A stretch of DNA of 64,000 nucleotides from Escherichia coli (GCF_044647545.1 NZ_CP172818.1), one strand, 5' to 3'; counted from the stretch's first letter, positions 403 to 56,287 are shown. Notes: generated from the sequence alone by a model not told the origin. Numbers and translations: made by a program.

Positions 403-2427
<2,025 letters not shown>

Positions 2428-39795: not shown

Positions 39796-39900
39796 GAGTC
39801 GCCGCCTGTGAAAAACTTTCGTGTATCGTGACAATTTTTCGTCAGAGTAAATAACAAAATTCGGCAAGCGCGTTTAAAAGGTGAGGTAGATCACTAAGAA
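39796..39900 (-). promoter_or_regulatory. presumed eut operon promoter region
   Basis: AT-rich sequence immediately 5' of eutS; assigned by position, no motifs mapped. Confidence 0.3.
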
Positions 39901-40159
39901 TGGAGAGATATTTTATGTTAAGAAAAAAAACATACATTGTATGAATATAAACGGGAACCAATAAGTTTTGTTTATCATATTATATAGACTTCTTTAATTT
40001 TTAATAATTAGCAGAATACATATTTAATTACTGTTGTATTCTAAAAATATTTATCTTCACCCCATTTAAAATAATCTAGGATTTTATTCAGAAAATAAAA
40101 AAGACCCGAAAAAATCCTTCCCCCCCAAAGGCGCTAATTCATCCATATTAACTCAAGAC

Positions 40160-40710
40160 TTCATAGAAAATTTTCTTAACCCCCATATAGAGCCTCTCTA
40201 AGCCTATTATCCTTTTATTATCAAATCTCTAACCCATCTTTACCTATCTGCAAAAACACACACAAACCACTATTTTATTTTTTTTAAAAACGGAAAAAAG
40301 CATAAGGAAACGAAACAAATGAGAAAAATTTCAAAAAAAAAGAAAAATAGAAAAAAAATAATAAAAAAAACGAAAGCGAATACGAAAGGAAGAAAAAAAA
40401 AAACAAAAAATTTCAAATTCCCCAACCCACAGCCACAAAGCAAAACGAACAAACCTGAGGAACTTAAAGAAAAAGAGTATATGAAACTTAAACTAACACC
40501 TAGCTAACTATAGTAACCGAAGAAAGAACACAAAAAAGAAACAAAAATACAAAAAAAAACTAAACAAAAAAAAAAGAAAATCATAAAATTTTTATCTCAA
40601 CATAAAAAAAAAATTGAACAAAAAAAAAATGACCCCAAAAAAAACACCCCAAAAAACAACAAAAGGAACACAACAAAACAAACAAAAAACACCCCAACAC
40701 CACAGGAAGG
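40160..40710. repeat. unclassified adenine-rich low-complexity tract (no coding capacity)
   Basis: By manual count 39-44 A per 60 nt on the + strand across 40321-40680; at least four A10-A11 homopolymer runs (40393-40403, 40566-40575, 40604-40613, 40620-40629); a C7 run at 40120-40126; short degenerate repeats (aaaaaacaccccaa appears twice). Only low-complexity K-rich and F-rich pseudo-ORFs. Confidence 0.7.
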
Positions 40711-40728
40711 GAGAGGAATCAGCTAAAC

Positions 40729-55200: not shown

Positions 55201-55392
55201 ACTTCGCTGGCATTTATCTTCGGCGTATTGCCAATGGCAACCAGCACGGGTGCCGGTTCCGGTGGTCAGCATGCGGTGGGTACTGGCGTAATGGGCGGGA
55301 TGATTTCGGCCACTATTCTGGCTATTTACTTCGTGCCGCTGTTCTTTGTGCTGGTGCGCCGCCGCTTCCCGCTGAAGCCGCGCCCGGAATAA
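52279..55392 (+). CDS. acrD: RND aminoglycoside/multidrug efflux pump AcrD (1037 aa)
   Basis: [67 protein letters not shown]...; AcrB-family architecture. Confidence 0.97.
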
Positions 55393-55397
55393 GCAAT

Positions 55398-55430
55398 AAA
55401 AAAGGCGACATGCTAATGTGTCGCCTTTTT
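55398..55430. terminator. bidirectional intrinsic terminator downstream of acrD (and ypfM)
   Basis: aaaaaaggcgaca-tgctaatg-tgtcgccttttt: 7-bp GC stem with an A-run 5' and T5 3'. Confidence 0.65.
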
Positions 55431-55490
55431 CAACTTTCCGATTAAGAACCTGCTCAGCGGGTTCTTGCTGTTTGTACTTTGTCTCAGGAA

Positions 55491-55550
55491 TTACTTACGA
55501 AGCATAACTTCGATAAAGTCTTTCCAGTTCCCCAGTTCACGTTCAATCAT
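55491..55550 (-). CDS. ypfM: small protein YpfM (19 aa)
   Basis: Hand translation of the - strand: ATG ATT GAA CGT GAA CTG GGG AAC TGG AAA GAC TTT ATC GAA GTT ATG CTT CGT AAG TAA = MIERELGNWKDFIEVMLRK, matching the K-12 small protein as I recall it. Below the ORF-track length cutoff. Confidence 0.6.
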   Translation of the reverse strand: MIERELGNWKDFIEVMLRK

Positions 55551-55912
55551 AACAACCTCTCTTATAATTATGGGTATTCTACGGAAACAATATACCGTGG
55601 TGAAGCTAATTTACTCGATTGCTGCGATGACTACCTCCGGGGGACAAACCTTATGTAAATACTATGGTCCTGCGGTGATAATTTGTATGTGATACACAGC
55701 AACATTTCGAGATATTCATACGGCATCTAATACTGATTTAATTCTGGTTAAAATACAGACAGATAACAAGATGAATATTCTTAATGTTTACGTTAAAAAT
55801 GTTTAATGTTATTTAATAGTTGTTAATTTGAATACTTCGATAATGTTATATTTCCTGATAATCATTTGCAGGCAAAATGTTTTCACCCTTAAATGAGTAT
55901 TTATTCTCATAA

Positions 55913-56287
<375 letters not shown>

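Follow-up and report, generated by a model that had tools for sequence, protein, structure and literature searches.

The locus between acrD and yffB

The window analyzed here is a 64,000-nucleotide stretch of Escherichia coli DNA (GCF_044647545.1, NZ_CP172818.1), with positions counted from its first letter. In the spacer between acrD and yffB, a 19-codon gene, ypfM, lies on the opposite strand to both neighbors, convergent with acrD and divergent from yffB, and two TTG-initiated open reading frames (ORFs) are found on the plus strand. The features to which the analysis refers are as follows.

55491–55550, minus strand: ypfM coding sequence, 19 codons (55494–55550) and a TAA stop (55491–55493), product MIERELGNWKDFIEVMLRK
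55576–55604, minus strand: sigma-70 promoter of ypfM, from a consensus scan and cross-genus conservation, its hexamers also given in PMC3946193
55556–55563, minus strand: Shine-Dalgarno sequence AAGAGAGG, 5 nt upstream of the ypfM ATG (55550)
55431–55490, minus strand: ypfM 3′UTR, ∼60 nt, its sequence and length varying between genera in the alignments
55444–55450 and 55460–55466, within the ypfM 3′UTR: arms of an Escherichia-restricted hairpin, from folds and alignments
55398–55430, both strands: intrinsic-terminator hairpin AAAAAAGGCGACA...TGTCGCCTTTTT, from a terminator scan, folds, and the Rfam STnc250 helix
55392–55511, minus strand: region aligned to Rfam RF01409, STnc250 ("Hfq binding RNA"), at the 3′ end of the ypfM mRNA
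55465–55692, plus strand: 75-aa TTG-initiated ORF, antisense to ypfM, judged spurious
55479–55658, plus strand: 59-aa TTG-initiated ORF in another plus frame, judged spurious

The 19-codon gene is ypfM

Translation of the minus strand at 55491–55550 yields MIERELGNWKDFIEVMLRK followed by TAA, with the ATG start and the stop at codon 20 both intact, just as a first-pass annotation of the same DNA had read it. That annotation had also recognized the peptide as the K-12 small protein YpfM, and the identification holds. In a profile search, the peptide matched the NCBIfam equivalog model small_YpfM (NF033843.1) at 59.2 bits, well over the curated cutoff of 33 and far beyond chance (E = 2.4e-16), with residues 1–19 aligned to the full profile (1–19 of 19); the query carried one appended C-terminal K, which lies outside the aligned stretch. 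RefSeq annotates a CDS named "protein YpfM" (WP_001386977.1) at the matching offsets in a K-12-like genome, in EC488, and in an O157 genome, and the 60 nt of ypfM in the window show no difference from the K-12 ypfM sequence in Table S8 of PMC10746267. Peptide, coding sequence, and position are those of YpfM in E. coli K-12, i.e., this is the same gene; compared with the K-12-like record there are a few substitutions, all of them in the flanks (99.3% identity over 701 nt), and the coding sequence is unchanged. Of the complete E. coli genomes, 5426 in number, all but one (5425) contain the 701-nt stretch around ypfM, and "ypfM: protein YpfM" is among the features annotated under the matches listed for it. 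E. coli EC488 is 100% identical to the window over 55300–56000, apart from an IS1 insertion. The IS1 element (805–1502 in the EC488 locus, L084; at ∼55780 in window coordinates) sits in the AT-rich ypfM-yffB spacer, where it leaves ypfM intact and parts yffB-dapE from its upstream region.

The gene is missing from the list of ORFs compiled for the window even when the length floor is lowered to 20 aa, because at 19 aa it falls below that floor; the earlier remark that the ORF track had missed it is accordingly correct at any setting of the track. The accompanying warning that further short genes might be hidden in the same way did not hold up, as ypfM is the only CDS shorter than 60 aa in RefSeq for the collinear 64 kb, a count that rests on the RefSeq annotation and leaves room for small proteins outside RefSeq; ypfN is 66 aa long in the RefSeq annotation of the collinear K-12-like stretch. 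Collinearity with the K-12-like genome, at 95–98.5% identity, extends over the whole window except for positions 1–768 and ∼39913–40719.

YpfM is conserved across the Enterobacterales

Relatives were sampled by way of the neighboring YffB protein, taking one genome per species, which gave 80 Enterobacterales loci chosen independently of ypfM. In 72 of these loci, yffB is preceded by a YpfM-like ORF in antisense orientation. The 72 include Escherichia, Citrobacter, Enterobacter, and Klebsiella and reach as far as Yersinia, Dickeya, and "[Erwinia] mediterraneensis"; the neighborhood of yffB lacked such an ORF in Erwinia, in Lonsdalea, and in a few more of the 80 yffB-anchored loci. An AcrD-like C terminus converges on ypfM in 70 of the 72 loci (acrD > < ypfM yffB >).

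With the window counted, the peptide is exactly 19 aa long in 71 of 73 sequences. Nine of its 19 residues are invariant (M1, E5, W9, K10, F12, I13, M16, L17, and R18), the 52 distinct ypfM DNA sequences encode only 22 peptides, and the ypfM frame has the lowest pN/pS of all six frames (pS = 0.50, pN = 0.077, pN/pS = 0.155; pairwise averages in which phylogeny is ignored). In a multi-genus alignment, the −35 and −10 elements, the Shine-Dalgarno sequence, the ORF, and the terminator stem are conserved and the 3′UTR is free to vary, a pattern that would be expected of a gene for a small protein. Length varies in two cases only, in Lelliottia nimipressuralis and Yersinia nurmii, with a 30-aa form, MIERELGNWKDFIEDMLRNDLQEELQEHLI, in which K19 is replaced by N and the stop is lost, and a 20-aa form with an extra C-terminal A.

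Published evidence for expression

For the translation of ypfM and the detection of its protein, we rely on published work with K-12, in which the DNA of the gene is identical to that in the window. YpfM has been observed intact by top-down mass spectrometry, with 100% coverage and an N-terminal formyl-methionine, and was seen by DIA and PRM as well; an earlier large proteome study also had it (PMC12529367). Ribosome-profiling data, which had been suggested as a check on the gene, do contain footprints on ypfM: these were quantified in a comparison of pH 5.8 with pH 7.6 (RIBO log2FC +0.63, padj 0.011; PMC10746267, Table S8), and a later sheet of the same supplement gives −2.5 (padj 7e-20; PMC10746267).

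In Salmonella, Sittka et al. (2008) recovered the orthologue, under the name STnc250, from Hfq co-immunoprecipitates (24 versus 6 reads) and detected by Northern blots a stable, growth-phase-dependent transcript of ∼220 nt; their conclusion was that STnc250 is "a small mRNA gene," the counterpart of E. coli ypfM, which had been predicted in 2001 (PMC2515195). An RpoD-holoenzyme genomic-SELEX site has been mapped in the ypfM/yffB spacer, with TTCACC-17-TAGAAT given as the ypfM promoter, and H-NS binding is also given for this spacer (PMC3946193). A MarA ChIP peak has been found in the ypfM/yffB spacer of Salmonella (PMC10268841). One review terms YpfM "of unknown function."

The ypfM transcription unit

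The −35 hexamer of the promoter, TTCACC (55604–55599), is separated by a 17-nt spacer from the −10 hexamer, TAGAAT (55581–55576), the end of which lies 25 nt before the ATG; across genera the two elements are kept as cTTCAc and GTAgAAT. In the same alignment, the Shine-Dalgarno sequence AAGAGAGG is nearly invariant over 23 genera.

At the other end of the gene, the hairpin at 55398–55430 lies in the interval that separates the stop codon of acrD (55392) from that of ypfM (55491). It has a GC-rich stem, which is conserved across genera, flanked by an A-tract and a T-tract as expected of a bidirectional intrinsic terminator, and its folding energy is −20.2 kcal/mol when read as plus and −22.3 kcal/mol when read as minus, with z ∼ −5 in both orientations (0 of 200 shuffles were as stable either way) and with tails of U5 (plus) and U6 (minus). 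The suggestion that acrD and ypfM have a bidirectional terminator in common thus fits the sequence, by the fold and by the U-tract on each side, and we predict that the hairpin serves acrD on the plus strand and ypfM on the minus strand. The hairpin at 55444–55466 in the 3′UTR, with −14.5 kcal/mol in plus and −9.6 kcal/mol in minus orientation, is lacking in Citrobacter and the other genera. In plus orientation a T-rich run comes directly after it, and for this reason it may be a back-up terminator for acrD.

As we picture it, ypfM would be a self-contained, monocistronic unit on the minus strand, with a transcript of an estimated ∼180 nt that would start from the sigma-70 promoter at 55604–55576 with a short leader, continue through the Shine-Dalgarno sequence, the 19-codon ORF (55550–55494), and the variable 3′UTR of ∼60 nt, and end at the hairpin at 55430–55398, where convergent acrD would also terminate. 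The functional product would be the peptide, not the RNA. Because the Salmonella transcript (∼220 nt) is longer than the ∼180 nt estimated from the proximal promoter, a second, upstream transcription start is possible. A role for ypfM as a leader peptide was considered and rejected, there being no same-strand gene after ypfM before the strong terminator.

Upstream of the promoter, two non-coding blocks are conserved over 16 genera of Enterobacteriaceae: ACTATGG at 55660–55666 (plus strand) and a ∼33-nt block, AAATTTtATGTGAc...GCAAtATTTTGAAAt, at ∼55680–55712 (plus strand). By hand comparison, the 3′ half of the latter matches marbox examples (PMC10268841) at 11 of 15 positions in most genera and at only 9 of 15 in the window's own version; this putative marbox-like match is only a lead, and the block could alternatively serve ypfM as a second promoter or take part in the regulation of yffB-dapE. 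No site for CRP, Fur, MntR, PurR, or ArgR could be fitted to it by eye against the consensus sequences.

The antisense ORF is a shadow of ypfM

In place of ypfM, the ORF list contains the TTG-initiated 75-aa ORF at 55465–55692, which overlaps the gene antisense. The first-pass annotation had called it probably spurious, devoid of recognizable features, and located in AT-rich promoter DNA. Searches of Pfam and NCBIfam gave no match for the 75-aa ORF, and a Pfam search gave none for the 59-aa ORF, which we likewise judge to be spurious. As to composition, the ORF is indeed poorer in GC than the window (39.5% versus 53%), but the extreme part of the spacer (20–27% GC) lies beyond it, at 55700–55900.

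The third codon positions of the 75-aa ORF coincide with those of ypfM, so that neither 3-periodicity nor codon conservation can tell the two frames apart inside the overlap; codon-position periodicity was therefore dropped as a discriminator. Comparing the conservation of the 19-codon frame with that of the 75-codon frame had been proposed as a way to decide between them. The pN/pS values are 0.155 and 0.31, respectively, but the frames are inseparable inside the overlap, and the decision comes from boundaries and indels outside it.

Inside the overlap, the 75-aa frame is free of stops in all 73 sequences. When YpfM was recoded at random with synonymous codons, however, 100% of 20,000 recodings also kept the frame open, which makes the openness uninformative; the frame stays open because its wobble positions are also those of ypfM, so that the YpfM sequence is unable to give rise to a stop in it. 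The same applies to the apparent purifying selection. The pN/pS of the 75-aa frame in the overlap is 0.312, and a null in which synonymous codons were shuffled within each column, with the YpfM peptides held fixed, gives 0.312 as well (range 0.3121–0.3124), the plus-frame statistic under such a shuffle being fixed by the column composition of the ypfM frame; uniform synonymous recoding of YpfM gives 0.229 ± 0.006. Observed and null values being equal, the apparent constraint on the 75-aa ORF is exactly the shadow of YpfM, and by the shuffle null there is no purifying selection in the overlap beyond that imposed by YpfM. The two other antisense frames have stops in some relatives and pN/pS values of 1.5–1.7.

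Outside the overlap, the frame disintegrates. Across the loci it measures 30–168 codons from stop to stop and 0–108 codons (median 44) from the first NTG, e.g., 28 codons in another Escherichia and 9–14 in several Citrobacter. The TTG start is lost through 4–5-nt deletions in the nearest relatives (Escherichia L002 and E. albertii), and near 55627 a 2-nt deletion in L002 and a 1-nt insertion in E. albertii shift the frame, leaving these relatives with unrelated C termini. Start, stop, and frame are thus not conserved, even within the genus Escherichia. There is no Shine-Dalgarno-like motif in the 20 nt upstream of the TTG, which itself belongs to the stem of the hairpin found only in Escherichia, a short way past the terminator of acrD. 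Among 5.8 billion proteins, the 75-aa ORF has nine relatives, 57–125 aa long and none of them named beyond "hypothetical protein"; most span about half of the query, and there is a single full-length cluster, from 58 contigs. In three RefSeq genomes (K-12-like, EC488, and O157), PGAP annotates no plus-strand CDS between acrD and yffB. Beyond ypfM, the ORF runs across the Shine-Dalgarno sequence, the −10 and −35 elements of ypfM, and the two conserved non-coding blocks, and it is because its remainder crosses these conserved promoter and 5′UTR elements that it persists in E. coli.

The 75-aa ORF in these respects resembles other shadow (antisense) ORFs, in which a wobble-coincident frame inherits openness and apparent purifying selection from the gene on the other strand. 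It differs in that the real gene covers only 60 of its 228 nt; in E. coli the rest is open by chance, and in the nearest relatives it is interrupted. With its lack of any family match or Shine-Dalgarno sequence and its unconserved start, stop, and frame, we conclude that the 75-aa ORF is spurious, as the first-pass annotation had supposed.

STnc250 and the 3′ end of the ypfM mRNA

The region 55392–55511 is orthologous in locus and strand (the acrD/yffB spacer) to STnc250 of Salmonella, and the Rfam model spans the last codons of the ORF, the 3′UTR, and the terminator. In the window, the covariance model reaches 37.1 bits and so falls short of its gathering score (42). At a point where the model itself provides for 13 nt, the aligned sequence has an insert of 37 nt, namely the Escherichia-specific hairpin, and it is this extra insert at 55444–55466 that keeps the score below threshold. 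At the orthologous site, the model passes in Citrobacter (81–97 bits), Yokenella (44.4 bits), and E. albertii (43.1 bits), and in none of the more distant genera tested. With this reach, confined to close relatives, it behaves as a sequence model of narrow scope that describes how the ypfM mRNA ends. That STnc250 is labeled an "sRNA" has historical reasons, the conclusion of the original authors having been that STnc250 is a small mRNA (PMC2515195).

Some other Rfam models score above threshold at the sampled loci, all at sites unrelated to ypfM: a cspA thermoregulator (1362–1781, minus strand) and a fluoride riboswitch (835–896, plus strand) near yffB in Dickeya undicola (L080), and naRNA4 downstream in E. 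albertii (L003, 4266–4346, plus strand).

Alternative readings of the locus

Could the 75-aa ORF be a real protein gene that overlaps ypfM antisense, whether alone or together with it? It is open in the window and in the K-12-like and O157 E. coli genomes, it has no stop over the ypfM overlap in any of the 73 sequences and a pN/pS of 0.31, i.e., below 1, and a 75-aa "hypothetical protein" cluster from 58 contigs exists at NCBI. Both the openness and the low pN/pS are, however, predicted by the constraint on YpfM alone, and what lies outside the overlap consists of the Shine-Dalgarno sequence, −10, −35, and upstream blocks of ypfM. Together with the loss of start, stop, and frame within the genus, a start codon that lies past the acrD terminator, is enclosed in a hairpin stem, and has no Shine-Dalgarno sequence before it, the want of Pfam and NCBIfam matches and of a PGAP annotation in the three RefSeq genomes, and database relatives that are few, of disparate length (57–125 aa), and mostly of about half coverage, this makes such a gene hardly credible. 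The transcript might instead act mainly or additionally as an Hfq-binding regulatory RNA, the ORF being incidental or the RNA having a dual function. The alignment of an Rfam family described as an "Hfq binding RNA" would fit with this, as would the strong terminator with its 6-U tail, a typical feature of Hfq-binding transcripts, and the folding of the whole ∼183-nt RNA, which is better than that of shuffled sequences (z = −3.6); the 4-fold enrichment with Hfq in Salmonella (24 versus 6 reads) leaves room for a role at the RNA level (PMC2515195). In the same table, however, bona fide sRNAs are enriched 21- to 27-fold, and the discoverers of STnc250 themselves reclassified it as "a small mRNA gene" (PMC2515195). 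The stretch from the stop codon to the terminator, where a seed would be expected, is unconserved in sequence and in length, the STnc250 model passes in close relatives only and fails in the window itself, and the ORF is conserved at the level of the protein, with diverging synonymous sites (pS = 0.50, pN/pS = 0.155). The peptide, moreover, has been detected (PMC12529367). The variable 3′UTR, the conservation of the ORF as protein, the detected peptide, and an enrichment with Hfq that is modest by comparison together make a primary role of the ypfM transcript as an sRNA unlikely, and we see little prospect for the additional one.

It is also conceivable that transcription or translation of ypfM matters in itself and that the peptide is functionless, for example, if either process were to interfere with the promoter of yffB-dapE, which is divergent from ypfM, or with the 3′ end of acrD. 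The gene is tiny, it lies in a regulatory spacer with reported binding of H-NS (PMC3946193) and MarA (PMC10268841), it has its terminator in common with acrD, and the arrangement acrD > < ypfM yffB > recurs in 70 of 72 loci. Against this, 9 of the 19 residues are invariant and all the way from Escherichia to Dickeya the gene keeps its 19 codons under strong purifying selection, and amino acid constraint of this strength would be unexpected if only the act of translation mattered; nor does any same-strand gene lie downstream for ypfM to regulate as a leader peptide. We regard this reading, and the interference given as its example, as very improbable.

Our preferred reading, to which we assign a probability of roughly 0.95, is that the locus holds the known small gene ypfM, of which the peptide rather than the RNA is functional, and that the 75-aa plus-strand ORF is no gene. 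The identity and structure of the gene and the purifying selection on its peptide are established by the observations made here; ypfM is an already known gene, and the ORF opposite to it is an ordinary shadow ORF. The case is instructive for quality control, in that a length-thresholded ORF track hides an expressed and deeply conserved gene and displays a spurious antisense ORF instead. A wobble-coincident antisense frame inherits openness and a low dN/dS from the real gene, and consequently tests of frame periodicity or dN/dS that are restricted to the overlap cannot settle which strand is coding; what does settle it is the conservation of boundaries and the phase of indels outside the overlap.

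A helix model for the YpfM peptide

YpfM has four acidic and four basic residues and a net charge of 0, and it is therefore too polar for a membrane helix. Modeled as a helix, it has a hydrophobic moment (μH) of 0.55, compared with 0.27 ± 0.13 for shuffled sequences (p = 0.033), and a hydrophobic stripe formed by I2-L6-W9-F12/I13-M16-L17, with the moment at ∼95°; the hydrophobic residues that are invariant make up this one face. Positions 4, 8, and 15, which vary, are directed to the opposite face, at ∼298°, although their clustering is marginal (p = 0.06). From this pattern, we tentatively suggest, at somewhat less than even odds, that YpfM is a soluble, cytosolic, net-neutral, amphipathic α-helix; its conserved hydrophobic face would dock onto a larger partner protein or serve for self-association.

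Most characterized bacterial small proteins bind larger proteins, as do the small regulatory proteins MntS, SgrT, and AcrZ. With these three YpfM shares the size class (<50 aa), a promoter of its own, a strong Shine-Dalgarno sequence, and the prediction of a single helix. In sequence it is unrelated to them, and the mode of docking is likened by analogy only; YpfM is shorter (19 aa) and net neutral, with an amphipathic rather than a transmembrane helix. In the literature searched, no function or partner has been established for YpfM. Its linkage to yffB and acrD would, as a clue to a partner, be only a lead, and that the Hfq-associated 3′ end (STnc250) is regulatory, or that the helix modulates YffB (ArsC/Spx family) or the RND pump AcrD, we hold to be improbable.

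A low-complexity spacer elsewhere in the window

In the second of the two regions without collinearity to the K-12-like genome, the eutS-maeB spacer contains ∼610 bp of extreme A-rich, low-complexity DNA at ∼40090–40700 (A 55%, C 20%, T 17%, G 8%), where the K-12-like genome has ∼120 bp. When the window from 39900 onward was compared with complete E. coli genomes, the matches ended after the first 203 nt (39900–40102, 91% identity), although the low-complexity filter of BLAST may hide matches to this spacer; in one matching genome that was inspected, eutS is followed by a glycosyltransferase gene. The 60–62-aa ORFs within ∼40090–40700 encode poly-K or poly-F, and the segment may be what is left of a degenerated sequence, or else an artefact of the assembly.
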